64,000 nucleotides of DNA from Lysobacteraceae bacterium (GTDB lineage: Bacteria; Bdellovibrionota; UBA1018; JAGTJX01): NCBI GenBank assembly GCA_023657465.1, contig JAGTJX010000004.1, positions 154,904 to 218,903 of the forward strand, in the 5' to 3' direction. The position numbers and the translations under genes are program-made. Shown one piece after another: positions 16,510 through 58,880 of this stretch. How positions within the stretch are numbered: position 1 is the first letter of the stretch; every line of letters begins with the position of its first letter. The notes beneath the pieces are model-generated. The model was not told the DNA's origin. It ran no database searches and worked only from the letters and a program-made list of their open reading frames with translations.

Positions 16510-16514
16510 AGGGT

Positions 16515-17550: not shown

Positions 17551-17646
17551 CCCTACCGGATTAAATGGACAATACTGAATAGAGTGATGGCAGCGTAGTA
17601 GTGAGTGTTCTTTCATAGAAATGTAAGTCCGTCTCTGACGGTTTTT
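17551..17646 (+). repeat. Intergenic repeat family copy R1 (core plus hairpin), ending in a Rho-independent terminator
   Basis: Core TACCGGATTAAATGGA at 17554-17569, then ...GTTCTTTCATAGAAATGTAAG, then CCGTC-tct-GACGG at 17629-17641 followed by TTTTT. It starts 2 nt after the NTase stop. Confidence 0.8.
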
Positions 17647-17783
17647 CACATCGTCTCAGTGATTGCGCTTGCGTATTGCCTCAAAAGTAAGTGTTACTTA
17701 TGAGCAGTAGGTCAACAGGAGTGAGAGTTAATGTAACTTAATTTAATTTAAAACACTGACAGCAAGAAACAATGTTAAAAAAT

Positions 17784-18533
17784 TCATCGTTTGATTTGCG
17801 ATACAACAATGTACCCTCGCGCTTTTGAAACACCCTTGTCTTGTGTATTCATTCCCTTAAAAAAGGTTTCGGTAGAAACCCAATAGGGTGTGTACCACTC
17901 GCGATCAACGTCTAAAACTAGTACTTTTTGTGAAGTTTTGTCATAAGCAGCGATCGGAGAAATATGACCCGCGGGTTCCGATTCCCCAGTAAAAACGGCT
18001 TGATCAAAATTAGCAATAATAAAGTCTTGATCTGTTTTCTCGTTCTCAGTGAAGTCACTTAGATAACCGTTTATAGCGCCTTTTTCTAGTGAATCGACGT
18101 GTATAACTTTAACTTGGTATTGATCTGGGAAATAAATATTGAGTGCTTTTTTTAAAACTTCTGAAAATCGATCCATTGAAAAGCATTTGTGATCTTTCAT
18201 GGCTTGGATCCATTCAGGGTCATTAACTTTTGCAACGATATCGGCTTGTGTAATGTTTTTTGTTTCAGAATCTAAGTCTTGCTTATTTTTAAGGGCATTG
18301 AAGATCGCCGCCATAGAGGCCGTTTGACACATGTTTTCTCCCTGCGGAACATAATGAAAAATCATAGCCCAAAAATCAGGAGCATGATTTTTTTGCAAAT
18401 ACTTATGATCGTCAATGGCTCTTAGAGTTTCAGGTGCGTATTTAGATTTAGAAAAAGCTTGGGGAGCAAGAGTGAAAGCTATTATTAGTAATGGACTAAA
18501 AAAAACGCTTGTTTGTTTTGATACGTATTTCAT
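17784..18533 (-). CDS. Secreted phytochelatin-synthase-like (papain-fold) peptidase
   Basis: Signal peptide plus a conserved PCS catalytic triad context: Cys in QGENMCQTASMAAIFNAL, His in PAGHISPIAAYD, Asp in KVLVLDVDREWYTPYWV. This closely parallels the cyanobacterial PCS-like enzyme. Confidence 0.8.
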   Translation of the reverse strand: MKYVSKQTSVFFSPLLIIAFTLAPQAFSKSKYAPETLRAIDDHKYLQKNHAPDFWAMIFHYVPQGENMCQTASMAAIFNALKNKQDLDSETKNITQADIVAKVNDPEWIQAMKDHKCFSMDRFSEVLKKALNIYFPDQYQVKVIHVDSLEKGAINGYLSDFTENEKTDQDFIIANFDQAVFTGESEPAGHISPIAAYDKTSQKVLVLDVDREWYTPYWVSTETFFKGMNTQDKGVSKARGYIVVSQIKR

Positions 18534-18566
18534 AGCTGTAAATTTTACTCATATTTCTTGGCATTG

Positions 18567-18738
18567 CAATACCAATACTCCCAATAAGCGGTTTAGTAAG
18601 TTTGGCGTCTTTTAAAACCCAGTCTACCGGATTAAATGGAAAATACTTCATAGAGGTTGGGTGGTTGAATTTGGAGCGTTAATCCATAGAAATGGAAGCG
18701 CCCGAAAGTTATTTACCTTCAGGCGTTCGTGATTTTTT
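18567..18738 (+). repeat. Intergenic repeat family copy R2 (5' module plus core plus hairpin)
   Basis: CCAATACTCCCAATAAGCGGTTTAGTAAGTTTGGCG is followed by the core TACCGGATTAAATGGA at 18625-18640, then GGGTGG..GGAGCGTT..TCCATAGAAATGGAAGCGCCCGAAAGT, ending GATTTTTT. Confidence 0.8.
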
Positions 18739-18760
18739 CATTAATATGAGCAGTTGGTGC

Positions 18761-19690
18761 TCAGGGTTTCACATCTTCTCCAATTTCCAGAATTTCAGCA
18801 TCATAGATGGTCTCGCTCATTAGATCGGGAAAATTGGTGATTGAATTACCGTATTCCTTGGAGCCAGGTAAGACACGTACTTGAATCTGTTGATCAGCGA
18901 CTTGGCTCGAAAGTTCGTAATCACGAATCAAAACTTTAACCATGTTTATTTTGGAGTCCGGCATTGGAAATGTTAAGTCTAACTTGTGTTGTGAGCCATC
19001 CAATTTAGGTAGCGTATTCAGCTGTTGGTTATAAAAATACTCATTAAGATCCTTTTTGTTTTGTTCAGAAAGATCTGCAGTTAAATGGATTTCAGAAACC
19101 GGCGGTAAGATACTACTTAGCATTTGTTTCCAAGTATCCGGTAGGAAGCTTTGGTCTGATTTCAGGTCAAAGGCAATAAATAGTTTCTCACCGTTGGTTC
19201 CCGTTAATTTATTCACACGAAGATGATCAATTAAGCCACTTGTACCTGGCTCGGGGAGGGAAAATAAAAGCATCGTGAGAAACGTGTAATTTGTTTTACC
19301 ATTTTTCTTAAGGAGCCCATTAGTTTTCTGTTTTTCCCATTCAGCAATTTTAGTGTTCTGAGTTTCAATGGTATTTGTCTGAGTGACTTTGGCAGTACAC
19401 TGGCCGACTGGAGGTATGATGTTTCCAGGATTTTTTGGATCTACGCCGTGAATATAACCTTCGTTTGTATTATCCTCTAAATCATCTTTTAGATCAGCAA
19501 CGCGAGTGGAATCGTTCATTGGACGTTTATCATTAATGTTGATCCTGTTCAAAACGTCATAGGGCAATTGAAGAAATATGGGTGACTCGCATTGAAAGTT
19601 TTTGAATTCAGTCTTTTGATGAACTTTGACGTGTTCCCCAGCATTTGCTGTGAGCGATACAAGGCATGTAAATATTAATACCTGCTTCAT
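18761..19690 (-). CDS. Secreted hypothetical protein
   Basis: Signal peptide MKQVLIFTCLVSLTANA (start moved to M6 of the track ORF). I recognise no domain. Confidence 0.5.
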   Translation of the reverse strand: MKQVLIFTCLVSLTANAGEHVKVHQKTEFKNFQCESPIFLQLPYDVLNRININDKRPMNDSTRVADLKDDLEDNTNEGYIHGVDPKNPGNIIPPVGQCTAKVTQTNTIETQNTKIAEWEKQKTNGLLKKNGKTNYTFLTMLLFSLPEPGTSGLIDHLRVNKLTGTNGEKLFIAFDLKSDQSFLPDTWKQMLSSILPPVSEIHLTADLSEQNKKDLNEYFYNQQLNTLPKLDGSQHKLDLTFPMPDSKINMVKVLIRDYELSSQVADQQIQVRVLPGSKEYGNSITNFPDLMSETIYDAEILEIGEDVKP

Positions 19691-19783
19691 AAAAATTCCT
19701 TCCACTCTAAATCCAATGGTTACCGAGCATTGTCCGAACCAAAACTCTTCAAATTAACAAGCAAATCAAACGTGTCTAATATT

Positions 19784-19806
19784 GCTCTATAGAGCACATA
19801 ATGTGC
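19784..19806. promoter_or_regulatory. Overlapping palindromes GCTCTATAGAGC and GCACAtaaTGTGC upstream of brnT
   Basis: Perfect 12-bp and 5+5 palindromes sit in the divergent intergenic region 19706-19953. They are candidate operator sites. Confidence 0.3.
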
Positions 19807-19918
19807 CAGGTTTTGCAGAGGTCTTTAGTGGGTAAAATTGAGAAGCAGGTTTGAACCCTGCCTATACCTAGAACAGCTGTCCAATGATTAGTCGGTCCAA
19901 ATATGCTTTATATGCTGC

Positions 19919-19947
19919 TTGACAATTGAGTACAAAAGGCACACAAT
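19919..19947 (+). promoter_or_regulatory. Promoter of brnTA (leaderless)
   Basis: TTGACA at 19919-19924, 17 bp, then CACAAT at 19942-19947; the ATG at 19954 lies 7 nt after the -10. Confidence 0.45.
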
Positions 19948-19953
19948 AGATTC

Positions 19954-20223
19954 ATGAGCTTTAAGTGGGATGAGGCTAAGAACAAGAAGCTAGCCGCTCA
20001 GGGCAGACCGGGATTTGAATTTTTCGTAGAGGCCTTTGATGAAGGGCTTATTTATTTCGAAGGCGAGAATACAAAACGTCCGGGACAGGGTGTTTTTGTC
20101 GTGATCATTAATGAGTATGCTCACGTAGTGCCTTATGAAGACAGAGGAGATCATCTCTTTTTAAGAACACTTTATCCATCCCGTAAGTGGCAGGTAGTAT
20201 ATGAAAAGGAGCAGAAGAAATGA
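19954..20223 (+). CDS. brnT: BrnT-family (DUF497, RelE/ParE-fold) toxin
   Basis: FKWDEAKNKKL...FEFFVEAF at the N-terminus and LFLRTLYPSRK at the C-terminus match DUF497. Its stop overlaps the next start (ATGA). Confidence 0.75.
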   Translation: MSFKWDEAKNKKLAAQGRPGFEFFVEAFDEGLIYFEGENTKRPGQGVFVVIINEYAHVVPYEDRGDHLFLRTLYPSRKWQVVYEKEQKK

Positions 20224-20531
20224 AAAATGCGAATAAAAAGACTTTAGCTGGATATGATCCAAAAAAAGTTAAGCTTTCTCGTGATGAGCAAGAGTTTGAA
20301 GACAACCTTGTGATCGCTGATTATTCTTCTAAGAGCTCAAAATCTGAACGTATGAACATTCGTTTGCCAGAAGAGGACTTGCTCAAGTTACAAAAGCTAG
20401 CGCTCAAGCATGGACTTCCCTACCAAACCTTAGTGGGCTCAGTGATTCATCGCTACGTTACTGATCAGTTGGTGGATTTAGAGGAAGCCAAAAAAATCCT
20501 TGCTGCGCCTCCTGCTAAAAAGAGAGCTTAG
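20220..20531 (+). CDS. brnA: BrnA-family antitoxin (RHH-like)
   Basis: MNIRLPEEDLLKLQKLALKHGLPYQTLVGSVIHRYV matches the BrnA consensus. Confidence 0.75.
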   Translation: MKNANKKTLAGYDPKKVKLSRDEQEFEDNLVIADYSSKSSKSERMNIRLPEEDLLKLQKLALKHGLPYQTLVGSVIHRYVTDQLVDLEEAKKILAAPPAKKRA

Positions 20532-20535
20532 ATTT

Positions 20536-20627
20536 TTACAGGAAATAACGTTCCAAACTTTGAAGCTGGTTTCTATTAAAGAATTGCCAATATTCCCATT
20601 AAGCTTTTTAGTTGATTTGGCGCTCAA
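20536..20627 (+). repeat. Intergenic repeat family copy R3 (5' module only)
   Basis: AAATAACGTTCCAAACTTTGAAGCTGGTTTCTATTAAAGAATTGCCAATATTCCCATTAAGCTTTTTAGTTGATTTGGCG is near-identical to 58812-58875 and related to segments of R2 and R5. It starts 5 nt after the brnA stop. Confidence 0.7.
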
Positions 20628-21488
20628 CTACTTCTTCCGGATTTCTTTGTAATAACCCTTTTCATAAATCTTCATGATCACTCTTTCCGTGAGAAGGGTG
20701 TCGAGACCTTTGCCACCTTGTTCGCGGATCATTTTGCGAGCCTCACTGCTACTGCCAGGCAACACAGATTCATCTTGAATGAAGATATCAGGCTTCGTAG
20801 AATCGTTGTTCTTGTATTGTACAGACTTACCATCGGTAGAGCGTGTGTAGCCTGCGAGAAAATCTGCAGGAAGCTTGGTGCTCACATCGAGAGTCATTGC
20901 AGTCACATCACCTCTAGGAATGAGCACCCAATGGGTAAGCGCGAAGAGTTCCTTCCAGTTTGGCCAAGTCGTAATACTGTTTAAAACATCCGTGCCCGCA
21001 ACCCAGAACAGATTCCTGGCACCGTTGGGATAAATTTCATTCAATCTCTTCAAAGTTTTGGAAGTGTCTTCGAAGATCTTCTCTTTGTATTCAAGATCAG
21101 ATGGACAGAGGTGGAAGACCTTAGCGGAGAGCTCTACCCATTCAGCACATCCATCAGTGGTGATATTGAATTCACTGTAAGGGATCTCTTCTAGCTTTAG
21201 AATCTGTGGCATGTCTTCCATAGCAAGTTTTGTGAGTTCGAGGTTCACGCCATTATTCTCTGATTCTTTCTTATAAGGCATCGCAACCATGAGAGTGCTC
21301 TCAAAGAAGTCTTCTCTGTGCATGAGTCTAGTAATCAGACGTAGATGTGACTTCGTCGGAGGATCGAAACTTCCTCCGAAAATAACATGAGTTTGAGAGG
21401 GAGCATCAGCTAGAGATGATGCTTTCTTAGGTATTGAGCTACAACTGGAAAGCGAAATGATGAGAAGTAAAAAATTTATTTTAGCCAT
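20628..21488 (-). CDS. NadD-family (cytidylyltransferase-fold) nucleotidyltransferase paralog with an N-terminal lipoprotein signal peptide
   Basis: Motifs IFGGSFDPPTKSHLRLI (HxGH region), WVAGTDVLNSITTWPNWKEL and IFIQDESVLPGSSSEARKMI all align to NadD. The N-terminus MAKINFLLLIISLSSC has a lipobox LSSC, and no alternative internal start exists. Confidence 0.65.
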   Translation of the reverse strand: MAKINFLLLIISLSSCSSIPKKASSLADAPSQTHVIFGGSFDPPTKSHLRLITRLMHREDFFESTLMVAMPYKKESENNGVNLELTKLAMEDMPQILKLEEIPYSEFNITTDGCAEWVELSAKVFHLCPSDLEYKEKIFEDTSKTLKRLNEIYPNGARNLFWVAGTDVLNSITTWPNWKELFALTHWVLIPRGDVTAMTLDVSTKLPADFLAGYTRSTDGKSVQYKNNDSTKPDIFIQDESVLPGSSSEARKMIREQGGKGLDTLLTERVIMKIYEKGYYKEIRKK

Positions 21489-22333
21489 TGTCTTACAGGT
21501 TCAACCCAAGCGTAGATGATGAAAAACCAAAACGACATGCGAGCAATGAGATCCCATCGCTTAGTCCTTAAATAGAGAAATGCGAAGAAGAGATGAAATG
21601 CTACTTGAGTCGTAGCAACAGGAATCCACCATCCCGTAAGTATCGATAATGCAATCATTACGGTAGAGATCAGAATCATAGCAACCCAAGTGCGTTCTGC
21701 ACCGATGAGTGAATGATAGTTCTTCAAGATCGAGTGACTGTGAGGATCGAGATTCTTCACGAGTTCTCTATTCATGAGTGTGAGTGCAAATATGCCACCG
21801 ACACCGATGATTTTTTCTTCGTTGATCATCGTCGGTTGAAACGCCGCCACAGAGAAGAGAGTGATCGGAAACAAAACACAATGATCTAAGAAGGAGTGAA
21901 TGAAGGGATGTCCTGAGAGAATGTGTCGGAGGAAATAGTTTTTACCCGCGATTCCCATCCAGGCACCCATCGCTAGGAGAGCGAGTCCAGCAGTAGAAAA
22001 CTCAAGAATGAAAAGGACGATGCCGAAAACCATAAGCCCCGCCCAGCAGAACCAGCGCGCAGCCTTAAGGTCGTTGAGTCTCACAATGCTACGAGCGAGT
22101 GGTTTCTGATGTTGGGTGCGTTGAACGTCTTGGAGATAGTCCCTGGTATCGATCTGTAGCCTAGCTAGAAAAAGAAAAAGCGTAATCCCAATCACCGATA
22201 TAATCGTTTCGGGAATTCCCATCGGGCTCAATTGGAGTCCAGCTCCAGTTAAAACGAGGCCTGCAATGAGGGGAATTTGCTCTTGGAGCGGAAATCGCTT
22301 AATGATGTACCGAGTCCAAGGTTTCACAGTCAC
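21476..22333 (-). CDS. Polytopic membrane protein, possibly a UbiA-family prenyltransferase
   Basis: About 8 TM segments and an Asp-rich motif IDTRDYLQD (DxxDxxxD) after TM2. Its GTG start is uncertain. It overlaps the start of the downstream NadD-like gene by 13 nt, suggesting an operon. Confidence 0.4.
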   Translation of the reverse strand: MTVKPWTRYIIKRFPLQEQIPLIAGLVLTGAGLQLSPMGIPETIISVIGITLFLFLARLQIDTRDYLQDVQRTQHQKPLARSIVRLNDLKAARWFCWAGLMVFGIVLFILEFSTAGLALLAMGAWMGIAGKNYFLRHILSGHPFIHSFLDHCVLFPITLFSVAAFQPTMINEEKIIGVGGIFALTLMNRELVKNLDPHSHSILKNYHSLIGAERTWVAMILISTVMIALSILTGWWIPVATTQVAFHLFFAFLYLRTKRWDLIARMSFWFFIIYAWVEPVRQWLK

Positions 22334-22341
22334 TTAATTTT

Positions 22342-23370
22342 ATGAGTATTTCTGCAATGAATCAAGATTTTTGGATAAAAGACGGAAAACCTGCACTCTT
22401 ACTCGCTCCGATGGAGGGTGTAACTGACGGTCCGATGAGATCGTTTTTCTCTGAAACACAGGCATTTACCCACTTAGTGACTGAATTCCTCCGAGTGAAT
22501 GACTCTCTCTACGGTGATCATGTGTTTCGTAGACACGCACCTGAATCTTCCAATGAATTCCGCACGAGATATGGAACTCCCGTCATTCTGCAGCTACTCG
22601 GTGGCGATGCTCAGAGATTAGCCGAGAACGCAGAAGCTGGAGTGAAGTGTGGAGCACGAGCAATTGATCTGAACTTCGGATGTCCTGCTCCTACTGTGAA
22701 CAGACATGATGGAGGCGCGACTCTGCTCAAGTATCCCGATCGCTTAAAAAATATTGTGAGGACTGTGAGAGATGCAATCCCAGCGCATATTCCCGTGTCC
22801 GCTAAGATGCGACTCGGTTGGGACAATATCAATGATGTGGATCGAAACTTCGATGCACTCATTGAAGGTGGAGTAAGCTCAGTCACCATTCATGGTCGCA
22901 CTAAGATTCAAGGCTACAAACCGCCAGCGTACTGGGAACCGATTGGTAGAATCCGTGCACGATCACCGATTCCAATTATTGCAAATGGAGAGATCTGGAC
23001 GTTTGAAGATTTTCTCCGTTGCCAAGATCAGACAGGATGCACGCACTACATGTTAGGTCGTGGAGCGCTTGCAGATCCAGGATTACCTGTGAGAGTCGCA
23101 AGAGCGCTAGGAATTGAGAGTGTCGCTTCAGTTCCGAAAGCTCAATTATTCGAAGATACCTATAATTCTCTCGACGCATCAGCATGGGTTCCACTCATCG
23201 AGAAGTTCTCGCGCGAGAGTGCCAAAATTTTTCCAAGTGAAGATTACACCGTCAGACGAGTGAAACAATGGATTAATCTCAGCCGCTTTGGCAGAAAGTT
23301 TCCATGGTTTGATCAGATTAAGACTGAGCTGAGTGTAGAATGTATTTTAAATAGGATGGTTGCTATGTAA
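22342..23370 (+). CDS. dus: tRNA-dihydrouridine synthase
   Basis: LAPMEGVTDGPMR FMN-binding motif and a TIM-barrel Dus family profile. Confidence 0.85.
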   Translation: MSISAMNQDFWIKDGKPALLLAPMEGVTDGPMRSFFSETQAFTHLVTEFLRVNDSLYGDHVFRRHAPESSNEFRTRYGTPVILQLLGGDAQRLAENAEAGVKCGARAIDLNFGCPAPTVNRHDGGATLLKYPDRLKNIVRTVRDAIPAHIPVSAKMRLGWDNINDVDRNFDALIEGGVSSVTIHGRTKIQGYKPPAYWEPIGRIRARSPIPIIANGEIWTFEDFLRCQDQTGCTHYMLGRGALADPGLPVRVARALGIESVASVPKAQLFEDTYNSLDASAWVPLIEKFSRESAKIFPSEDYTVRRVKQWINLSRFGRKFPWFDQIKTELSVECILNRMVAM

Positions 23371-23432
23371 CTATAAAAAAGATCAAGTTATGGCATTCAC
23401 AGAAGTCTGTGACCTAAGTAAGTTGATGTTTT

Positions 23433-24819: not shown

Positions 24820-24823
24820 GAGT

Positions 24824-25921: not shown

Positions 25922-25939
25922 GTTATCGTTAGGAACTTT

Positions 25940-26713
25940 ATGATGAATCGAGTTCTGTTTAAACCTAAAAACTCAAACCAAGTTCATTGGAGCGCGCTAC
26001 GCGTTAATGGAGTAGATGCACGTGATTTTCTGCATCGCATGACAACTGTGAATATGCGTGAGCTTGAGGTGGGGAAGGCTGCAGAGGGATTGCTGCTCAC
26101 TCCGCAAGGTAAAATCCAAGCCTACTTCTATCTCTCGTGTTTGCGTGAAGGCGAGTATGTTCTCGAGTGCGATGCGGGTGCAAATGGGTTTTGGCTTCGC
26201 AATCTTAAGGAGAAACTCGAGTTTTATCACTTTGGGGAAAAGATTGAGTTCACAGTCTTGATCGGAGAGTATGAGTGGCGACTGGGATCAGGTTGGGACT
26301 CTGGAATTGGTGAGAACGAGATCAGTCCGATAGGTGATGGCTGGATAGTGCGTCATTCGGATTCAAAATTTGGCCAGGCTTGGGTGAGTGTTTATTCTCG
26401 TGGGAAAATCACTCGTTCTGAAGCTCTAGAAGTTTCGTGGAGTGATCTCAATGATTTGAGAGTGGAGAATGGCACAGCTTGGTGGGGAATCGAGATTCAG
26501 CCTGATTCTAATCCACTGGATCTCGCTCTTGTGAGTGCGATTGCGGATCAGAAGGGGTGTTATCCAGGACAAGAGGTGATCGAGAAGATCATTGCACTTG
26601 GGTCACCTGCTAAGCGTTTGTGTTTAGTAGTCGATGAGATCGGCGTGAAATCTCTCAGTGTATTATCCAAAACAAAAGCAGTTGTCGGCGGATCTATTCT
26701 GAAAGTTTTTTAA
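25940..26713 (+). CDS. ygfZ: YgfZ-family folate-binding protein (GcvT-like fold)
   Basis: C-terminal signature KGCYPGQE and a GcvT-like N-terminus. Confidence 0.7.
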   Translation: MMNRVLFKPKNSNQVHWSALRVNGVDARDFLHRMTTVNMRELEVGKAAEGLLLTPQGKIQAYFYLSCLREGEYVLECDAGANGFWLRNLKEKLEFYHFGEKIEFTVLIGEYEWRLGSGWDSGIGENEISPIGDGWIVRHSDSKFGQAWVSVYSRGKITRSEALEVSWSDLNDLRVENGTAWWGIEIQPDSNPLDLALVSAIADQKGCYPGQEVIEKIIALGSPAKRLCLVVDEIGVKSLSVLSKTKAVVGGSILKVF

Positions 26714-26822
26714 GACTGACCGTGTGTGCAATGCTTTTTCTTTTCAGGGTCTGATTGATTTATTAAATAAACAATGCTAGTAGAGTCATCATTCAGTAAC
26801 GAATTCATTCGAAGGGGATTTT

Positions 26823-27314
26823 ATGAAATTTAATTTATTAGTGTTATCAGCAGTAGTGAGTATGGCGTCTTCATCCGTGATGGCAGCTCCGTACTATGTC
26901 GATTCAATGAATTGTGTAGGTAAGATTCAAGGTGATCATTCACAAGTTCATCCTAGCTACACTTGGATGATTACGAAGTTCACTTCATTCTTGTCTAAGA
27001 AGAAATCAGGCGGCTACGGTGTTAGTCTCCGCATTGCAAACGATTATTCAAAAACTAAGTCTGGTCTTGATAAAGAGCCAGGCGCAGAAGTTTGGTACAC
27101 CTCTTCATTGCAGCTCCGTAATAATGTGGTCACAAGCCCAGATAGTGATTTTCAGTTCGTAATTAAAAAGGTTTTGAAAGGTGGACACTTTCTCAGAGGA
27201 CAATATAAGCCTAACAACTCAGTAGCAGGTAATGGATACTGGTATGACATATCATGTTTGTCTGAAGTGATTGATAAACCAACACGTGTTTCCGATCAAA
27301 CGAAGAAAGATTAA
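26823..27314 (+). CDS. Small secreted hypothetical protein
   Basis: Signal peptide MKFNLLVLSAVVSMASSSVMA. It appears AT-rich by eye. Confidence 0.45.
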   Translation: MKFNLLVLSAVVSMASSSVMAAPYYVDSMNCVGKIQGDHSQVHPSYTWMITKFTSFLSKKKSGGYGVSLRIANDYSKTKSGLDKEPGAEVWYTSSLQLRNNVVTSPDSDFQFVIKKVLKGGHFLRGQYKPNNSVAGNGYWYDISCLSEVIDKPTRVSDQTKKD

Positions 27315-27337
27315 ATAACAATTCGGTAAGTGAGATT

Positions 27338-27751
27338 ATGAAAAAAATAATATTGAACTTAGTGGCACTATATATCTCCACCAGTCCGGCATTTGCGGAT
27401 TACAGCTGCAAAGTGAATCTAAATGAAAAAGACAGTACAGAATCTAGAAGCGAAACGATGACTATTAAAGTTAGTCCTTCGATTTTTGAGAGTACTTGGA
27501 CACCCTTTGAAATTAACTCTAAAGAGTTTGGCCTAATCAAAGGAGACGTCAACATTTTTGACTCAAAAGGTGGCTCAAGTCCCACTCGCCCATACGATGG
27601 GGTTTTTGTAAATTTACGCATAGATCGATTTAAAGAAATTAGATCAAAAACAAAAAATGGTCGATTCGCTGCAGTCACTTTTTCAAAGTATGACGATAGA
27701 TATATAACACTCGGAATCAATAGATTGTATTTGGAGTGCTTAAAACAATAA
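27338..27751 (+). CDS. Small secreted hypothetical protein
   Basis: Signal peptide MKKIILNLVALYISTSPAFA. It lies adjacent to and co-oriented with the preceding gene. Confidence 0.45.
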   Translation: MKKIILNLVALYISTSPAFADYSCKVNLNEKDSTESRSETMTIKVSPSIFESTWTPFEINSKEFGLIKGDVNIFDSKGGSSPTRPYDGVFVNLRIDRFKEIRSKTKNGRFAAVTFSKYDDRYITLGINRLYLECLKQ

Positions 27752-27816
27752 TCATTAGTTCGCTTCATGCGTGCTGATAATCAGTCTAAATCTCTAGTGG
27801 TTAAAATCTTTTGGAG

Positions 27817-28671
27817 TTACTTCTTCCCCATCACCATGATGTGACGGGTGCCAGGTGCTCCGACCATGCGTGCGAGTTTTTGTAATACAATAGCGATCTT
27901 ACGATTCGAGAGAATCTTTTGAACGATCTTCCATGATTCAATCGCCTTGAATGCGCTTGCGAATTGATACCAAAGTCTATCTCCTAAGAAGCTCTCGCCT
28001 GAGATCTTGAATCCTGCATCTCGAACGAAATTACGAACTTTGTAAAACGCATGGTGGTGAATGTAGTCAGTGAATAATGCCGTGCCTCCAGGCTTAAGCA
28101 CTCGCAAAACTTCGCTCGCAACTTTTGCTTGTGTTGCTTCATCAAGATGCCAGCCGAAGAGTCCATCGCAAACGAGCACACGTTCAAACAATCCGTCTTC
28201 AAACGGAAGTACTGAAGCATCAGCAACTAAGAAATGCACTGCATTTCCAACTCGAGCTCGTGCCTTCGCTACCGCTGTAGCTGAGAGATCCATAGCGAAA
28301 ATTTCGGCGCCGGTTTTCTGTAACTTCTCTGTCATGAGTCCTAGCGAACAACCGAGCTCTAGAACTCTTTGGCCAGGCATGAGTCCAGTGAGCTCGAGCT
28401 GCTCAATCACCCAGTCATGTCTTAATCCTTCGATTGCTCGGTGGGAGTAATTCCAGGGCTCGGATTGCTTCGTGTAATCCCCTTCGAAAATCGCAACGCG
28501 ATTCTCTTGGTCGTGCGCACGATCCATGAGCACAGGAATCCCTAAATTTGATTGAAGAGCGCGGTCTCTGAAGGGCTGACGCAGTGTGTTTGTCCATGGA
28601 GTGGATTGCATGGAATCAGATGTATCAGGATAGGGGGGAAAATGGCAATAGGGGCTTGCTTGTCTCATCAC
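27817..28671 (-). CDS. Class I SAM-dependent methyltransferase
   Basis: Motif I VLELGCSLG, an acidic residue after beta2 (AMDLS), and motif post I. The start is probably an internal Met, because the yhaM-like gene starts 18 nt away divergently. Confidence 0.65.
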   Translation of the reverse strand: MMRQASPYCHFPPYPDTSDSMQSTPWTNTLRQPFRDRALQSNLGIPVLMDRAHDQENRVAIFEGDYTKQSEPWNYSHRAIEGLRHDWVIEQLELTGLMPGQRVLELGCSLGLMTEKLQKTGAEIFAMDLSATAVAKARARVGNAVHFLVADASVLPFEDGLFERVLVCDGLFGWHLDEATQAKVASEVLRVLKPGGTALFTDYIHHHAFYKVRNFVRDAGFKISGESFLGDRLWYQFASAFKAIESWKIVQKILSNRKIAIVLQKLARMVGAPGTRHIMVMGKK

Positions 28672-50010: not shown

Positions 50011-50024
50011 GCTATTTTCAGCCC

Positions 50025-52859: not shown

Positions 52860-52920
52860 GAGTGTAAGGGATGCAATCTCTGTGCAAGCCCGGCGTCTTC
52901 CATGTTAGGATTGGGGCTCA

Positions 52921-53451: not shown

Positions 53452-55256
53452 TCTTAATCAATGCCCACGAGCTTCGTAAATCTTTCACCGCTAGACCTCT
53501 GTTTAATGGTCTGACCTTCACCATTGAATCTAAAGACCGTATTGGTCTCATTGGGCCAAATGGCGCGGGCAAGTCCACACTCATGAAGATCCTCATCGGT
53601 AAAGAGCAACCTGACTCAGGCACGCTCTCGATCAGATCGGGTACTAAGATTGCATACCTAGAACAGAAACCTACGCTCGACCAAGACACAACTGTGTATG
53701 CGACTCTCATGGAAGGCTCGCACGACGCTTACGACTGGCAGGAGATGTCGAGAGCTGACGCTCTGATCTCTAGGCTGGGACTTGATGGCGACGCTGTCGT
53801 GGGCAATCTCTCAGGCGGTTGGCAGAAGCGCGTGGCGCTGGGGCGTGAGCTCATGAAGCAGCCTGATCTACTCCTACTCGATGAGCCTACCAACCATCTC
53901 GATGTCGAGAGCATCATGTGGCTTGAAGATTTCTTAGAGCAATCTTCATTTGCAGTACTCACGATCACGCACGATCGTTTGTTCTTAAACCGCGTATCGA
54001 ATCGAATCATGGAACTCGATCGCAGGAACCCGGGCGGCATTCTCTGTGTCGAGGGAGATTACACGAAGTACTTGGAAGCCAAAGAAGAGCGCATCCACAA
54101 TCAAACCGAACGCGAAGTGAGATTGAAGAACGTTTTAAGACGCGAGACCGAGTGGTTGAGACGTGGAGCTAAGGCTCGTACGACGAAGCAACAAGCGCGA
54201 ATTCAACGTCATGGTGAACTCTCCAGTGAAGTGAATGAACTCAGTGATCGTAACAAAACCCAAAAAGTCAGAATGGACTTTGGCGCTGCTGAGAAGAACC
54301 CAAAGCGACTCATTGAAGCTTTGAAAGTTTCTAAGTCGTATGATGGCAATCTCGTCGTTCCAGAGCTCACACTCTTACTCACTCCACACAGCAGACTAGG
54401 ACTTCTCGGTCGAAACGGATCGGGTAAGTCGACGCTGATTAAACTGTTATTAGGCAGGGAGACTCCAGATCAGGGTGTTGTGAAACATGCCGACGCTCTC
54501 CAAGTTGCTTATTTCGAGCAGAATCGCGAAAGTCTAGATCCTAAGAAAACACTTCTTAAGACTTTATGCCCAACAGGTGACTACGTAGACTTCCAAGGCC
54601 GTCCTGTGCACATCAAGGGTTACCTCGATCGATTCAAATTCACTCCTGAACAAATGGACATGGAAGTAGGCAAGCTTTCAGGCGGTGAACAGGCAAGAAT
54701 TCTCATTGCGAAGCTCATGCTCCGTCCTGCAAACGTTCTTGTTCTTGATGAACCAACTAACGACCTCGATATGGAGACGCTCGATGTCCTTCAGGATGTC
54801 TTGGCTGAATTCAATGGCTCCGTCATTCTGGTTTCTCACGACAGGTTTTTCTTAGATTCTGTTTCTACCGACATCATTGCTATCGGCCCTGGAGAAAGTG
54901 GCGATAAGGAAATCCTGACGTTCAAGGGAGTTCTTCAGTGGGAAGAGTGGAAGCGTTCTGTTGGGATCAAAGAAACTAAGAAGAAGAACGTGAATCAAAA
55001 CTTAGACAAAGTCACAACAGCTCCTGGTAAGAAGAAAAAACTCTCGTTTACTGAACAGCATGAGTTCGACAAGATGGATGCAACCATTAAAGCAGCAGAA
55101 AAGAAATTAGAAGACATCGTGACGGAAAGTCACTCTCCCGAAGCAGCCGGATACTCAGTGAAGAAGCTCCAAGAGATCAGCGCTCAGATTGCACTCGCTC
55201 AGAAGGAAGTCGACCGACTCTATGCGAGATGGGAAGAACTCGAAGCGAAGAAGTAG
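53448..55256 (+). CDS. uup: ABC-F family ATPase (Uup-like, two ABC domains plus C-terminal coiled-coil)
   Basis: Two Walker A motifs (GPNGAGKST, GRNGSGKST) and two LSGG signatures without TM domains, plus a lysine-rich coiled-coil tail. The GTG start overlaps the previous stop. Confidence 0.9.
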   Translation: MILINAHELRKSFTARPLFNGLTFTIESKDRIGLIGPNGAGKSTLMKILIGKEQPDSGTLSIRSGTKIAYLEQKPTLDQDTTVYATLMEGSHDAYDWQEMSRADALISRLGLDGDAVVGNLSGGWQKRVALGRELMKQPDLLLLDEPTNHLDVESIMWLEDFLEQSSFAVLTITHDRLFLNRVSNRIMELDRRNPGGILCVEGDYTKYLEAKEERIHNQTEREVRLKNVLRRETEWLRRGAKARTTKQQARIQRHGELSSEVNELSDRNKTQKVRMDFGAAEKNPKRLIEALKVSKSYDGNLVVPELTLLLTPHSRLGLLGRNGSGKSTLIKLLLGRETPDQGVVKHADALQVAYFEQNRESLDPKKTLLKTLCPTGDYVDFQGRPVHIKGYLDRFKFTPEQMDMEVGKLSGGEQARILIAKLMLRPANVLVLDEPTNDLDMETLDVLQDVLAEFNGSVILVSHDRFFLDSVSTDIIAIGPGESGDKEILTFKGVLQWEEWKRSVGIKETKKKNVNQNLDKVTTAPGKKKKLSFTEQHEFDKMDATIKAAEKKLEDIVTESHSPEAAGYSVKKLQEISAQIALAQKEVDRLYARWEELEAKK

Positions 55257-55432
55257 CACAGCTTTTTTTAGTCCAGACTTTGGACGTGAAGTCTGATCTT
55301 CGAACAGAAATTAATCCATATTCAATAAAACATAGTTTAGCTCGGCATAGTTTTTGTACTTAGGAGTGCAGCCAAACTGAGCAGAGTGAGTGTGAAGAGA
55401 GAGTGGCATTGCCATTTTATTTGAGCACTTTG

Positions 55433-55456
55433 GCTCCTTTCCAAAAGAAAGGAGGT
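55433..55456 (+). promoter_or_regulatory. SD-sequestering hairpin in the 5' UTR of the small ORF
   Basis: CTCCTTTC (55434-55441), loop caaaa, then GAAAGGAG (55447-55454). This perfect 8-bp stem places the whole AAGGAGG Shine-Dalgarno in the 3' arm. Confidence 0.6.
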
Positions 55457-55460
55457 CTTT

Positions 55461-55595
55461 ATGGATGATAACGAGTTTGCCAACCGTTATTATACGTATC
55501 GTACGCAGTTAGAGAAACTTAAGCAGAAAACATGGCTCCTGATCGTCATAGCCCGCTTTCTGTTGTTTCTCATTGCACTTGCTCATCGTTTTTAG
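55461..55595 (+). CDS. Small membrane peptide (44 aa), candidate type I toxin-like ORF
   Basis: ATG at 55461 with SD AAAGGAGG 7 nt upstream. MDDNEFANRYYTYRTQLEKLKQKTWLLIVIARFLLFLIALAHRF has a polar N-terminus and a C-terminal TM helix. It is absent from the ORF track because it falls under the length cutoff. Confidence 0.45.
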   Translation: MDDNEFANRYYTYRTQLEKLKQKTWLLIVIARFLLFLIALAHRF

Positions 55596-55709
55596 GTGAG
55601 CCACTATAAATGACGATAGTGACGAGGCCTAGGGATACAGCGTAAACCTGGAGCTTTCATGATGAGGTCTGCTTGGTTTGGTCCAACTAAACATTAATTC
55701 CTGCAGCCC

Positions 55710-55800
55710 ATAGTACCTGATTAAATGGAATTTCTATCTGGAAGAAGAGTGGGCGGAGTTGGGAGCGTTCTTTCATAGAAATGAAAACGCCCGAAAGTGA
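55710..55800 (+). repeat. Intergenic repeat family copy R4 (core plus hairpin)
   Basis: Core TACCTGATTAAATGGA at 55714-55729, then GGGCGG..GGAGCGTTCTTTCATAGAAATGAAAACGCCCGAAAGT. It is about 75-80% identical to R2 over ~95 nt. Confidence 0.8.
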
Positions 55801-55828
55801 ATTATGTAATCAGAGCAATGTAGTGCTC

Positions 55829-56764
55829 TTATTCATCATTTCGTCCTACTGAGTGAAAAGCAGACCCTGGCGCAAAAATTGCTAACCACCTGAGCCAGGC
55901 CGCTAAACCTGTTCCTTGGAATAGCCCTTCTGCCTCTCCTACTGTTGCAAGCGGAGTGAGGTTATCACCTGAAGTGATCAATGCTTTCAACGCAATGTCC
56001 GCATTGTATTCCGCTGTACTTAATGATTTCTGTGATTCAGAGCCAAACGCGGCTCCTTGTGCAGCTAGAGCGAGGTCTAGACGAATTTTGTTATTTTCAT
56101 CTCCAAAAGCATCAACTATGAAAGCCCGTTTTGGGTCTCTTCCTATTGTAGTGGATTTAAACTGATAGCCCAATTGCGAAAGCCATGCAGCTAATGCTGA
56201 TGATGTCTTTCTTGCATGAAAAGCAGTCATCCAAAAGTGGTAGGGCTTAGAGTTATCAAAGCTGATCTTCACATTTTTAGGAATTGAGTAAAGCTGCTGA
56301 AATCGTATTTGAGCGCTAGCATCGAGAACAGAAACACCTAATGCAAGAATTTGAAAAAAGATGCCTGTATATTTTCTTGTGTCTTTAAATGAAGATGAAA
56401 AACCGCGGAGTCTAAGGTTGATATTAGGGCCTCCAGTTGAGAGAATAGCTAACGCTTCCCAAGAGTATTGATATGCCTCATCGTCTGTAGCGCCTGCTTT
56501 CTTCATATTACTTTGCATATCTAAGAAAAAATCCGAGCTTCTAGTCAATGAACCAGTTTTAATTTTTTCGAAGATCTCAAGAGTCATCAGGCGAATTCCT
56601 TCAATCATGACAGGGTTTTGGTACATCCCTATGATTTCATTTAACAGAGTGATTGGAGGCTGAGAGGTTGGAGACATATCATTCAATATTTTTTGTAATG
56701 CCCTTTTACAGGACTCGATTTTAAGAAGAGACCCATGAAGAGTGCAGAGGCCATAGAGGTGCAA
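55829..56764 (-). CDS. Hypothetical protein
   Basis: 311-aa ORF, probably co-transcribed with the upstream secreted protein. Unknown family. Confidence 0.45.
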   Translation of the reverse strand: MHLYGLCTLHGSLLKIESCKRALQKILNDMSPTSQPPITLLNEIIGMYQNPVMIEGIRLMTLEIFEKIKTGSLTRSSDFFLDMQSNMKKAGATDDEAYQYSWEALAILSTGGPNINLRLRGFSSSFKDTRKYTGIFFQILALGVSVLDASAQIRFQQLYSIPKNVKISFDNSKPYHFWMTAFHARKTSSALAAWLSQLGYQFKSTTIGRDPKRAFIVDAFGDENNKIRLDLALAAQGAAFGSESQKSLSTAEYNADIALKALITSGDNLTPLATVGEAEGLFQGTGLAAWLRWLAIFAPGSAFHSVGRNDE

Positions 56765-56788
56765 AGCAGGTGGGCTGATCTTCTCTTT

Positions 56789-57283
56789 TTACTTTTTGAG
56801 GAAGGCTAAAAAGTACTCATAGAGCTCAGTTTTTTTCGCGGGAAGCGTTGTAAATTTTGTTTTTTTACTGAGTACCATTTCGATACTTTTCCAATCGATG
56901 GGATCTGGGTTTGAAAAATAAAACTGTTGATCAAATGCAAAACGTCGAATTTTCTCTATCGGAATCAATGATAGCTGCCATGTTGTGATTTTAGTGGATT
57001 TAAAAATTTTAGGATTAAATGTTTCAGGTGAATGAAAGATTGATTCAAGTGTTCCATCTTTGAGCCCAAAAACAGTATCTTGCCCAGATAAAACGACAGA
57101 TCGGGCAAAAGAACTGATCTCAATGTTTTTTATATCCTCTTGAAGAGTTGCTAAGGTTGTCTTACCCAGGAGACTTGAGCAAAGTTTTCTTGTTCCCTCA
57201 TAAATACCCCGCGGGTAAGAAGGTAAGTCTGTACCTGCAATAAGTGAGGTAAAGAATATAAGCTTTAGAATGATCAAGATCAT
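56789..57283 (-). CDS. Secreted hypothetical protein
   Basis: Signal peptide MILIILKLIFFTSLIAG. It appears AT-rich by eye. Confidence 0.45.
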   Translation of the reverse strand: MILIILKLIFFTSLIAGTDLPSYPRGIYEGTRKLCSSLLGKTTLATLQEDIKNIEISSFARSVVLSGQDTVFGLKDGTLESIFHSPETFNPKIFKSTKITTWQLSLIPIEKIRRFAFDQQFYFSNPDPIDWKSIEMVLSKKTKFTTLPAKKTELYEYFLAFLKK

Positions 57284-57424
57284 GTTTTATTATCGTCAAA
57301 ATGATAGCTAAACTAAAATGGTTTTCACGCATATCCATCAGTATCATTAGATTCTGGTGTGGATCTGTAACTTTTTATTGTGGACCTTCTATTCAATAAA
57401 ACTCATTCTGCGGCACTCACTTTT

Positions 57425-57580
57425 ACCGGAAATATTTGCTAATATTTTCATTAAGCGTTTTAGTTGATCTGGCGGTTTTTGAAATCGAGTCTACCTGATT
57501 AAATGGACACTCTATAATAGAGGAGGAGTGTCTTTTAGTGAACGATACTTCATAGGAATTTGAGGGACTTAATGCCAATT
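57425..57580 (+). repeat. Intergenic repeat family copy R5 (5' module plus core plus degenerate hairpin)
   Basis: TTGCTAATATTTTCATTAAGCGTTTTAGTTGATCTGGCG is followed by the core TACCTGATTAAATGGA at 57492-57507, then ..ATAGAGGAGGAGTG..CTTCATAGGAATTTGAGGG. Confidence 0.75.
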
Positions 57581-57883
57581 CAAAGACTCTTTTCTAAGGC
57601 TCTTACCTTCTTAAATCTTAGAAAAATTGGCCTGGCTGACCCTAGTCATTCCATTGCTCAGTGTTTGTGCCAAAACATTTTCCACTCAAAACGACAACAT
57701 CATTAAAAATACAAAAGTAATTTTCATTTTATTTACCCCTTATGAAAATTGCTAACCGTACTGAGTTATGATTGCGCGGCTTGCAGCAGCTCAATCACAA
57801 CTGAAAAAAGTCAAATGAGACACACCCAGTAACGTGTCAACTCAGACACTTTGTAAATAGTATACCAAAAATGATACCATATA

Positions 57884-58774
57884 ATGATGAGGCATTTGCT
57901 TATTCTAGTATTATCGCTTTCTAACGCTGGCTGTATAATACCGAGACTGAAAGGGAAATCTTCGTCATCTGTATCCACAACCTATTCCGCCACTCCTACA
58001 AGTTGCGATCGAACATCAACATCTATTTCTTGCCCCTCTGGATATGTAGCTGTGCCAGGAAATTCATGTTGGGGAATAAATGATTTTTGTGTAATGCAGT
58101 TTGAAGCCAAAAATGACGGTAGCGGCAATCCTTTTAGTCAGGATGTTACAATCCCTTGGAATTCAATTACTGCTGTTGCAGCAAAGGCTAAGTGTCAAAG
58201 CTTGGGTGCTGCGTACGATTTGATTTCAAACCCAGAATGGATGGTGATTGCAAGAAACGTTGAGAAAGTGTCGATAAATTGGTCGAGCGGTGTAGTGGGC
58301 TCAGGCTGCTTGATGAGTGGTAATTGCTTGAATGGAAATGCATGCAGCTATTCTACAGGTACCTCTGACTTCGGTCCTGTTGCTGGAAGAAATTCTAAGG
58401 CATCTCTTACTCTAAGTTCAGGAAGTTTAATTTGGGACTTTTCTGGAAATCAATGGGAGTTTGTCGACTGGTATCCAGGCTGAGCGCTCGACTTTGGTCC
58501 CACCAGTTGCCCGACAGGATGGATCGAGTTTCCTGCTGCGTTAGCTGCATGCGCAGCTTTAGTGTTTGATGACGTTATGCCAGGTAACCCATCCAATCAG
58601 CTTGCATCGACTTATGACTCCACTTATAGTCTTGGACAATTTACTGGTGGCCCTGGTGGCGCTTATCGAGGAGGTGGGTTTGGTTATTCCAACTCAGGGG
58701 TTTATGCATTGGCAATGGATCATGGAGGCGGAACCAACGCCAACTATGGATTTCGTTGCGTTTATCGCCCTTGA
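57884..58774 (+). pseudogene. DUF1566/FGE-sulfatase-fold (C-type-lectin-like) lipoprotein gene interrupted by one in-frame TGA
   Basis: Track ORFs 57884..58483 and 58562..58774 share a reading frame. The only stop between them is the TGA at 58481-58483, and the intervening codons (ALDFGPTSCPTGWIEFPAALAACAAL) are protein-like. Lipobox LSNAGC; motifs GNQWEFVDW and C-terminal GFRCVYRP are typical of the family. Confidence 0.5.
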
Positions 58775-58809
58775 TAAATAATTTTTTATGACTAAGAAAA
58801 AAGAAATCT

Positions 58810-58880
58810 CTAAATAACGTTCCAAATTTTGAGACCGTTTTCTATTAAGGATTTGCCAATATTTACAGTAACTTAGAAGA
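58810..58880 (+). repeat. Intergenic repeat family copy R6 (5' module only)
   Basis: AAATAACGTTCCAAATTTTGAGACCGTTTTCTATTAAGGATTTGCCAATATTTACAGTAACTTAGAAG is near-identical to R3 at 20543-20610. Confidence 0.7.

Follow-up and report, generated by a model that had tools for sequence, protein, structure and literature searches.

The 64-kb stretch of DNA analysed here (the window), part of the chromosome of an uncultured, Bdellovibrio-like bacterium, carries six copies, R1 to R6, of a repeat built from two modules, A and B, and these copies form two clusters. Each cluster occupies a variable spot of low GC content with convergent core genes on either side. The preliminary description had placed a "core" (module B) at R1, R2, R4 and R5 and a "5′ module" (module A) at R3 and R6, where it stands by itself, as well as at R2 and R5, where it is joined to the upstream side of B. 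This layout was recovered, except that the beginning of module A in R5 moves about 40 nt upstream of the position given, to near 57383. Searching the window with nhmmer yielded no additional copies. The elements and the intervening genes are listed below under the names of the proposed cassettes (1a, 1b, 2a and 2b).

17551–17650, + strand: R1, lone arm B, left end of cassette 1a; 16-mer at 17554–17569, terminator-like hairpin at the inner end (17629–17641)
17784–18533, − strand: cargo of cassette 1a, secreted phytochelatin-synthase-like protein (PF05023)
18505–18722, + strand: R2, two-cassette junction made of arm A of 1a (right end, about 18505–18597, inner part diverged), spacer GGCGTCTTTTAAAACCCAGT-CTAC and arm B of 1b (left end; 16-mer at 18625–18640, inner-end terminator-like hairpin at 18699–18725)
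18761–20531, mixed strands: cargo of cassette 1b, secreted protein and putative toxin-antitoxin pair
18761–19690, − strand: secreted protein of cassette 1b, annotated 309 aa, function not assigned
19954–20223 and 20220–20531, + strand: putative toxin-antitoxin pair of cassette 1b
20514–20625, + strand: R3, lone arm A, right end of cassette 1b, ending ...TTGATTTGGCGCTCAA before CTAC
55711–55807, + strand: R4, lone arm B, left end of cassette 2a; 16-mer at 55714–55729
55829–57283, − strand: cargo of cassette 2a, two genes with no function assigned
55829–56764, − strand: gene of cassette 2a, annotated 265 aa
56789–57283, − strand: gene of cassette 2a, 164 aa, N-terminus signal-peptide-like by eye
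57381–57666, + strand: R5, two-cassette junction made of arm A of 2a (right end, 57381–57465), spacer GGCGGTTTTTGAAATCGAGT-CTAC and arm B of 2b (left end; 16-mer at 57492–57507)
57884–58774, + strand: cargo of cassette 2b, consecutive ORFs 57884–58483 and 58562–58774 on the same strand
58791–58898, + strand: R6, lone arm A, right end of cassette 2b

R1 starts 3 nt past the stop codon of an AbiEii-like gene, and the CTAC directly after R3 belongs to the native stop-codon region of a NadD-like gene (20628–21488, − strand). The antitoxin of cassette 1b gave weak CopG/BrnA-type matches. No family was matched by the two ORFs of cassette 2b, which may represent one disrupted gene. The window contains no transposase or recombinase gene.

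A rare repeat family with a near-invariant 16-mer

As described before, the 16-mer TACCKGATTAAATGGA occurs four times, at 17554, 18625, 55714 and 57492, always on the + strand. By chance, 0.03 occurrences are expected, and none of 100 shuffled sequences contained four matches. Its near invariance was likewise borne out; over the rest of module B, identity between copies reaches only 54–67%. For R2 and R4, the earlier figure of 75–80% identity was too high: we measured 67% over 95 nt, and 82% only over 49 nt. R6 is closest to R3 (83% over 60 nt). The terminator-like hairpin at the end of R1 is indeed followed by TTTTT, and the copies do lie in AT-rich accessory DNA, with a GC content of 38.7% and 40.5% in the two cassette clusters versus 45.3% in the rest of the window, in agreement with the breaks in synteny.

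The repeat family is real. It is also rare, being found only in the source metagenome-assembled genome (MAG) and on one metagenome contig, L011, which carries the copies L011a and L011b. The arms are the only sequence common to the window and this contig, with 77–93% identity over the matched stretches; roughly 80 nt of extra homology after arm B of R5 is common to L011a only. The repeats have no counterpart among known IS, plasmid or Rfam families.

Inverted homology of A and B and the order of units

Reverse-complemented, module A matches module B imperfectly, a relationship that the preliminary description had missed. When the reverse complement of A was aligned with B, the scores lay far above those of shuffled sequences, for L011a against itself (z = 7.6) as well as for R6 against R2 (z = 5.0) and L011b against R4 (z = 4.9). 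All three alignments were collinear, the reverse complement of R6 running parallel to arm B of R2. The A arm of R2 showed no inverted identity on its own in this comparison, and arm to arm the inverted identity is modest among the eight arms of the window and the three of L011 available for comparison. Profile searches pointed in the same direction. With a profile of B arms only, four of the six best non-self matches, the top two included, were A arms on the opposite strand (E = 9.8e-6, 0.0024, 0.8 and 1.7), and the four best non-self matches of a profile of A arms only were all B arms (E = 0.0069 to 0.18). The L011a junction folds into a hairpin from end to end, while R5 and R2 fold no better than shuffled sequence. 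About 27 conserved nt continue past the inverted repeat at the right end, a feature not typical for ends of DDE transposons.

The arms follow a fixed order. All five complete units, four in the window (R1–R2, R2–R3, R4–R5 and R5–R6) and one on the metagenome contig (L011a–L011b), consist of B, then one to three accessory genes, then A. All window arms share the same orientation, and the order B, A+B, A is identical in both clusters. Because every unit reads B-cargo-A, the "composite" copies are junctions of two abutting units. Lone B copies begin at (C)TACC, the sequence at the junctions is AGT-CTAC-CGG, the native CTAC comes directly after R3 and L011b ends in ...GAGCAC, with the tetranucleotide (C/G)TAC present at most junctions. 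The 16-mer forms the outer tip of the left arm, and its position is precisely the point at which lone half-copies start. No target-site duplications could be demonstrated. R2, R5 and L011a share a conserved spacer between A and B, which suggests joint inheritance of A+B as one unit and counts against the cassette interpretation favoured below.

No two units carry related cargo, and some of the cargo genes recur elsewhere in the MAG. A 511,660-bp contig encodes the phytochelatin-synthase-like protein a second time, with 100% identity, and also holds a 94–96% identical copy of the toxin-antitoxin pair; the antitoxin exists in a third, truncated copy as well. The genes for DUF6929, M28, HTH, AbiEii-like, NadD-like and Dus proteins, in contrast, are each single-copy in the MAG; thus, cargo genes are multi-copy and flanking genes are not.

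At both spots, close relatives carry nothing or different genes. The gap between the uup and HI0933-like genes holds unrelated genes in relatives with 95% and 90% uup identity, and the gap between the DUF6929 and NadD-like genes is empty in one relative and holds two other cassettes in another. None of the compared relatives has arms, so no precise empty site of an arm-bounded cassette is demonstrable. At this latter hot spot, the arm-less cassettes (M28) and (HTH + AbiEii-like) also differ in order between relatives; gene flux there therefore needs no arms.

Weighing the explanations

The main idea of the preliminary description was that module B is a structured RNA of the + strand (an sRNA, 3′-UTR or terminator element) with a conserved fold. 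The B copies do all lie on one strand, an intrinsic terminator ends R1, a strong hairpin stands at the end of R2, and one compensatory C-G/U-A change separates R2 from R4 in a 6-bp hairpin. However, two other copies break this very pair, and the claimed covariation gained no statistical support: 70.4% of cells pair in the five copies versus 68.5% in shuffles, 192 of 500 shuffles do as well as the real alignment, and the covariation is no better than in slid controls. RNAalifold returned almost no consensus fold (−1.84 kcal/mol, the covariation term being unfavourable), most of the invariant 16-mer is left unpaired in the prediction, Rfam gave no match at gathering or E-value thresholds, and no consensus promoter was found upstream on the + strand. 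Moreover, module A repeats the same sequence inverted, which is not predicted by an RNA read from one strand. We consider a conserved RNA very unlikely. It is scarcely credible that the repeats are coding remnants at recombination scars, for example a minus-strand N-terminus (MKE...PFNPV) or a plus-strand C-terminus (...LLPEIFANIFIKRFS before the stop). Although short ORFs cross several copies in a shared frame, stop codons break the frames in R2, R4 and L011a, nearly every difference between R5 and L011a is non-synonymous, peptide identity falls below DNA identity, and a six-frame pseudo-protein query matched no protein among 5.8 billion sequences.

Two further explanations start from the palindrome itself. 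A non-coding, MITE-like palindrome of about 200 nt (A-spacer-B) could have inserted repeatedly into intergenic hot spots, with lone arms as decayed halves and the cargo as unrelated neighbours. The imperfect palindrome formed by A+B fits this, as do the absence of a transposase and the conserved spacer in R2, R5 and L011a, which suggests that the junction propagated in one piece. Elements of the ERIC, Correia and BIME types likewise have no transposase and lie at gene 3′ ends, and the A+B junction resembles ERIC/IRU, Correia/NEMIS and RUP in being a non-coding, intergenic palindrome of 100–200 nt at such positions. Those families, however, occur mostly as whole units scattered over the genome in both orientations, whereas five of the eight elements here are half copies that bracket cargo genes, facing their partners across the cargo with B always left and A always right. 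Random decay predicts neither this arrangement nor the common (C)TACC start of lone B copies, and the duplication of cargo but not of flanking genes, together with the poor folding of R5 and R2, also makes such an origin rather unlikely. Integron-type arrays without an integrase (CALIN), in which the A+B palindromes would be attC sites served by an integron integrase encoded elsewhere, share with the present loci the same-orientation arrays of small accessory cassettes including a toxin-antitoxin pair, the imperfect palindromes at cassette boundaries, the chimeric junctions and the lack of a nearby recombinase (PMC4889954). The outer ends of the palindromes (AAATAAC...GTTAT/GTTCT) also loosely recall R″/R′ boxes. 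Decisive against this assignment is that lone copies split near the palindrome centre and not at the R′ box, and that the arrays open with a bare B and close with a bare A, with no whole site after each cassette. In addition, the palindromes of about 190–210 nt exceed attC sites, which measure roughly 57–141 nt. The R-box consensus RYYYAAC/GTTRRRY is poorly matched, palindromic homology extends past the AAC/GTT positions, and most cargo genes are oriented against the array direction. Overall, an integron origin is highly improbable.

Proposed non-autonomous cassettes and their closest counterparts

Combining the inverted homology of A and B, the B-cargo-A order, the accessory loci and the multi-copy cargo without its flanks, we favour, with a probability of roughly 55%, the interpretation that B marks the left end and A the right end of mobile cassettes that carry cargo but are non-autonomous, their enzyme being encoded elsewhere. 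Such cassettes would measure 1–2 kb, be bounded by arms of about 95–125 nt that are imperfect inverted repeats of each other, and carry one to three cargo genes without encoding a transposase or recombinase. They would all point the same way, head-to-tail, in integration hot spots of the chromosome that are bordered by the 3′ ends of convergent core genes. The composites R2 and R5, each a palindrome of about 200 nt, would arise where the right arm of one cassette meets the left arm of the next, and the array ends would remain as lone arms (B at R1 and R4, A at R3 and R6). The enzyme may recognise the conserved arm tips (left, the 16-mer CTACCGGATTAAATGGA; right, TCCATTAAGCGTTTTAGTTGAT), join or cut at (C/G)TAC, and insert the cassette beside an existing cassette end or the stop codon of a core gene; the intermediate, in which A and B are united as a palindrome, would probably be a circular or a single-stranded molecule. 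Of the preliminary interpretation, the 16-mer as a protein or recombinase recognition site thus fits its position at the outer left-arm tip, while the conserved RNA structure is not supported. The data also come close to an IS- or MITE-type terminal repeat, which had been named as the competing explanation, with no match to a known family. No autonomous copy of the element was found.

Mobile insertion cassettes (MICs), such as MIC231 of Bacillus cereus, the qnrS2 MIC and the Tn3-family MICs of Xanthomonas, are IS-derived and consist of two terminal inverted repeats around passenger genes without a transposase (PMC5444012, PMC4337579, PMC3129680). The present cassettes share with them the inverted-repeat arms around one to three passenger genes, the absence of an internal transposase, the multi-copy family with differing cargo and, presumably, mobilisation in trans. 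Unlike MICs, they have no known parent IS or cognate transposase, no demonstrable target-site duplication and unusually long arms that are only about 60–65% complementary; moreover, they are strictly of one orientation and follow each other head-to-tail across a conserved spacer of about 27 nt.

The topology of the arrays, P′ - element - P.P′ - element - P, is the exact product of tandem site-specific integration, as in the accretion of CTX-phi/RS1, other Xer-dependent elements and tandem genomic islands at one att site. The attP of CTX-phi, a folded single-strand hairpin of two inverted half sites, is a further likeness to the present arms. In contrast to these systems, there is no dif-like XerC/XerD site and no integrase here, the elements are only 1–2 kb long, and the shared core comprises perhaps only 3–4 nt. 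Apparent insertion 3′ of a tetranucleotide (here NTAC, in IS608 TTAC), hairpins near the ends and a single orientation of all copies in a stretch with constant GC skew recall the IS200/IS605 family with its non-autonomous PATEs and REP/BIME elements with RAYT transposases, and, as in REPs, the minus strand shows GTAG followed by a hairpin. However, the two ends of IS200/IS605 are not inverted repeats of each other as the present ones are, REPs measure 20–40 nt and occur in hundreds of copies, and no Y1 transposase was seen here. The process that assembles the cassettes would resemble tandem site-specific integration, or HUH/tyrosine-recombinase chemistry on hairpins, more closely than random cut-and-paste transposition.

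Copies, arms and distribution of the repeat family

The 16-mer TACCKGATTAAATGGA occurs at 17554, 18625, 55714 and 57492 of the window, each time on the + strand, against a chance expectation of 0.03, and none of 100 shuffles yielded four matches. The division into two modules made in the preliminary description was borne out by repeat finding, alignments and nhmmer profiles. Module B, which consists of the 16-mer and about 80 nt, is present in copies R1, R2, R4 and R5, while module A immediately precedes B in R2 and R5 and stands by itself in R3 and R6. Both clusters of the window (R1–R3 and R4–R6) are ordered B, A+B, A, and no additional copies came up in the window with a combined A/B profile. 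Identity among the B copies outside the 16-mer is only 54–67%, so the previously noted contrast between a near-invariant core and diverged flanks is real; the identity of R2 and R4 had been put too high and amounts to 67% over 95 nt. The two repeat-bearing regions have a GC content of 38.7% and 40.5%, compared with 45.3% elsewhere in the window.

Comparison of the two modules revealed that the reverse complement of A is collinear with B, with alignment scores far above those of shuffles (z up to 7.6). The alignment spans the tip (TTAAATGGA versus TTAATGGA) as well as the inner motif GAGCGTT.TTTCATAGAAAT. With a profile built from B only, opposite-strand A arms made up four of the six best non-self matches, the top two included (E = 9.8e-6, 0.0024, 0.8 and 1.7). 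The best non-self matches of an A-only profile were the four B arms (E = 0.0069 to 0.18), and the cross-strand matches are thus reciprocal.

Beyond the window, the family was searched for by exact-pattern scans (16-mer + N38-50 + CATAG). Among the GTDB species representatives, six matches were obtained in unrelated phyla, which is the number expected by chance, and scans of three viral collections likewise gave chance matches only. Neither blastn in 'distant' mode against 72,556 plasmids nor a six-frame pseudo-protein query for spurious ORFs over the element against a 5.8-billion-protein collection returned anything. The JGI metagenomes gave five matches, of which a 2.9-kb contig (L011) is the only true member. 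Its features are, in order:

Features of metagenome contig L011
~800-1010: A+B composite (L011a)
between the two repeats, minus strand: cytochrome-c-like gene
~2660-2780: lone A (L011b)

No transposase is encoded on L011, and its right flank ends in a gene with a C-terminus resembling the NadD-like gene of the window. The arms are the sole sequence common to this contig and the window, with 77–93% identity over the matched stretches. The family is therefore rare in current databases, being found only in the source MAG and on this one contig. The window and L011 together contain three whole A+B palindromes and five half copies, which gives eleven known arms, each of about 95–125 nt. The junction of L011a forms an end-to-end hairpin on both strands; significant folding of the R5 and R2 junctions was not found.

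About 80 nt of extra homology past arm B is shared by R5 (57580-57666) and L011a (L011 1010-1092), despite different cargo. Both have an ORF running through this stretch, with mostly non-synonymous differences, and the stretch is probably non-coding element sequence. A sorting of the arms into two subtypes that match within each cassette was also considered; the motif pattern is suggestive, four of four cassettes matching, but overall identities give no clean separation and the sorting is not relied upon here.

Proposed cassette units and their chromosomal sites

Reading from left to right, B is followed by one to three genes and then by A in all five units (R1...R2, R2...R3, R4...R5, R5...R6 and L011a...L011b). 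Since each B is paired with an A across the cargo, the composites represent the right arm of one unit meeting the left arm of the next. Tandem insertion into a chromosomal site would produce such a topology (P' - X - P.P' - Y - P), and random decay of whole palindromic elements would not yield it.

The junctions show a recurrent arrangement. Lone B copies start at (C)TACC, near the palindrome centre, and the three A+B junctions read ...GGCG-(16 nt)-CTAC-CGGATT. NTAC is found 5' of every B arm, all copies having a single orientation. Five left junctions carry CTAC or GTAC, and R3 has CTAC on its right side. The CTAC after R3 lies in the NadD-like gene's native stop-codon region and is present in the empty sites of both relatives. 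The tetranucleotide at the junctions may belong to the element, serve as a specific target or represent a 4-bp duplication. L011b continues through the spacer and ends at ...GAGCAC. Both an extension of about 27 nt at the right end and the lack of any demonstrable target duplication fit a simple transposon poorly.

The native 3' end of the NadD-like gene (20628-20643) reads CTACTTCTTCCGGATT, i.e. the element tip CTACCGGATT plus six extra bases, and the related locus L074 has CTACTTCTTCCTGATT at ~1135-1155, the same as the T variant of the 16-mer. This likeness could reflect target mimicry or chance; the pattern CTAC-N6-CKGATT showed no enrichment in the window. A crossover inside CCGGATT, which is common to the 16-mer and the native 3' end, was rejected because the native sequence runs on to the left of CCGGATT at R3.

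The cargoes of the different units are unrelated to each other, and Pfam and NCBIfam scans of all cargo ORFs detected neither a transposase nor a recombinase domain. The phytochelatin-synthase-like protein of unit 1a (R1–R2) has a 100% identical copy on a 511,660-bp contig of the same MAG. Two genes further on that contig are copies of the toxin-antitoxin pair of unit 1b (R2–R3), with 94% and 96% identity, and the contig of the window itself has a third antitoxin copy, which is truncated, about 140 genes upstream. The DUF6929, M28, HTH, AbiEii-like, NadD-like and Dus proteins, on the other hand, are each single in the collection. Multi-copy cargo next to single-copy flanks speaks against a two-strain mixture and in favour of the cassettes themselves having moved or been duplicated; we predict that arms flank the second-copy cargo loci elsewhere in the MAG. 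In cluster 2, two consecutive + strand ORFs at 57884-58774 (199 and 70 aa, 78 nt apart) have no family match and may be one gene broken by a frameshift.

The window itself is core chromosome, containing the L21/L27 neighbourhood as well as recA, glmS, uvrD and valS. The ABC-F gene uup and an HI0933-like gene border cluster 2 (55257-59050). Relatives whose uup is 95% and 90% identical have unrelated genes in this interval, and DNA homology with them ends exactly at both core genes. Non-conserved DNA extends between the core genes and the outermost arms (55257-55710 and 58899-59050) and may be the remains of further cassettes. Two small ORFs are found in these outer parts:

Small ORFs outside the outermost arms of cluster 2
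55461-55595: 44-aa ORF
58908-59054: 48-aa ORF, annotated (KA715_13765)

Cluster 1 is situated between a DUF6929 gene and the NadD-like gene, an interval whose content varies among genomes. It is empty in L074 (1100-1180), and in L073, another related locus (6130-8250), it holds an HTH + AbiEii-like block followed by an M28 peptidase block. In the window, the interval contains the M28 block and the HTH + AbiEii-like block (together at 15523-17549) and then the region bounded by R1–R3, the first two blocks being in reverse order compared with L073. Both blocks are without A or B arms, so that gene-sized blocks are reshuffled at this hot spot by a route for which the repeats are not needed. No arms were found at either locus in close and distant relatives (L007, L008, L073, L074 and L077-L079). 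An 89-nt intergenic stretch between cassettes in L073, picked out by eye as a junction scar, was not significant.

Directly upstream of the HTH gene, at 16515-16556, is a near-perfect AT-rich palindrome, TTGACAACATATAATATATTAGGCATAATATATTATATGTT, which is conserved in L073 and probably acts as promoter or operator for the HTH + AbiEii-like pair. A third variable spot, which lacks repeats, is located at 26713-27817, where two small ORFs without assigned function lie between GCV_T-like and methyltransferase genes; these ORFs are absent from L074, and L073 has other genes there. All named homologues of the ABC-F (uup) and Dus proteins belong to Bdellovibrionota or Oligoflexia (51–60% identity), and the bin carrying the NCBI label 'Xanthomonadaceae bacterium' is probably mislabelled or mixed.

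Evidence on the proposed RNA fold

The preliminary description explained the repeats by a conserved RNA structure with a covarying hairpin. This was assessed on an alignment of five B copies, four from the window and one from the metagenome. In the two stems proposed, 70.4% of cells are paired compared with 68.5% in shuffles, and 192 of 500 shuffles equal this value, although five copies provide low power. The only C-G/U-A exchange is counterbalanced by two copies in which this pair is broken, and slid controls gave covariation scores similar to those of the proposed stems. The RNAalifold consensus of the five copies reaches only -1.84 kcal/mol, with an unfavourable covariation term of +0.56, and does not contain the proposed hairpin. 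In Rfam, no family matched anywhere in the window at gathering thresholds, and the E-value mode gave chance-level matches only (E = 0.5 to 0.7). A consensus promoter upstream of B was not found on the + strand. Given the poor covariation, the weak consensus, the lack of an Rfam match and the missing promoter, the fold is not considered supported, bearing in mind the little power of five sequences.

The terminator-like hairpin described at the end of R1 is indeed present. Such hairpins are located at the inner ends of arm B in R1 (17629-17641) and R2 (18699-18725); they could terminate neighbouring cargo or flanking genes, and the arms may double as transcription insulators.

Relation to known systems and possible mechanism

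In architecture, the closest class is that of the mobile insertion cassettes (MICs), in which passenger genes are situated between inverted repeats without a transposase (PMC5444012, PMC4337579, PMC3129680). The units described here resemble them in that terminal inverted repeats flank each unit (B...cargo...A in five of five) and passenger genes without a transposase lie between the repeats. They differ in that no parent IS is known for the arms, none having been matched in the window, plasmid, viral, GTDB-representative or metagenome scans, and in their long arms, fixed orientation and stacking, which are unusual for this class. MITEs are short non-coding units with terminal inverted repeats and many whole copies. 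The attC sites of integrons measure about 57–141 nt and carry R''(RYYYAAC) and R'(GTTRRRY) boxes. The array logic of integrons and CALINs (PMC4889954) is similar to that seen here, but the palindrome is longer (~190-210 nt) and its outer motif is AAATAAC...GTTCTTT/GTTAATC, with homology running on beyond. Moreover, the break lies near the palindrome centre at (C)TACC instead of at the R' box, and the arrays have a bare B at their start and a bare A at their end. An attC-like site, our first idea for the A+B composite, was rejected on account of the break-point position and the poor R-box fit.

Two further classes share with the cassettes only a tetranucleotide and a strand bias. Elements of the IS200/IS605 (PATE-like) group have no terminal inverted repeats, carry similar subterminal hairpins at both ends, insert 3' of a fixed tetra- or pentanucleotide and have a Y1 (HUH) transposase. 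The NTAC 5' of the B arms recalls this target, but the cassette ends form inverted repeats with one another and the window encodes no Y1 transposase. REP/BIME sequences are 20–40-nt palindromes with a 5' GTAG, occurring in hundreds of copies along with a RAYT gene. On the minus strand, the arms likewise show GTAG and then a hairpin, but they are about 95–125 nt long with eleven known, and the window contains no RAYT.

On the combined evidence, B and A are best read as the left and right ends of mobile cassettes that are non-autonomous and carry cargo. A caveat to this reading is that cassettes lacking arms have changed their order at the cluster 1 hot spot as well. The near-invariant 16-mer at the outer tip of the left end would be where a recombinase or transposase binds and cuts. 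Four features together point to insertion that is site- and orientation-specific and goes via an intermediate with A and B joined: all copies share one orientation, the units are stacked head to tail, the junction spacer is conserved and (C/G)TAC recurs. We infer that the chemistry is nearer to tandem phage-like or Xer-type integration, or to HUH-type reactions, than to random cut-and-paste transposition; in the window, Pfam identified no transposase or recombinase. More speculatively, and in our estimate improbably, the units could belong to a cassette-capture system of Bdellovibrionota that has not been described previously. Here, small promoter-bearing cassettes would each have a palindromic recombination site of about 200 nt (A-spacer-B). 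A dedicated recombinase with its gene elsewhere would cut this site asymmetrically at a CTAC core, and the cassettes would stack in one orientation beside the stop codons of core genes. The enzyme could be of the HUH/Y1 type, or a tyrosine recombinase that works on folded single-stranded DNA. Such a system would be similar to integrons in logic but different in site architecture and break point.

If an enzyme does act on this long palindrome at a CTAC core, it would represent a new site architecture among the few systems that recombine folded DNA. Should a parent insertion sequence turn up instead, the repeats would belong to an ordinary family of the MIC/MITE kind from an under-sampled lineage. 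Predatory Bdellovibrio-like bacteria are considered poor in classical mobile elements, and little is understood of how they gain accessory genes. In the window, small cassettes with recognisable common ends fill two chromosomal hot spots and encode secreted enzymes and a putative toxin-antitoxin pair. The arms provide a sequence signature for finding such cassettes in other genomes, together with the enzyme that moves them, and for testing if the phylum in general gains genes through the stacking of cassettes at core-gene 3' ends.
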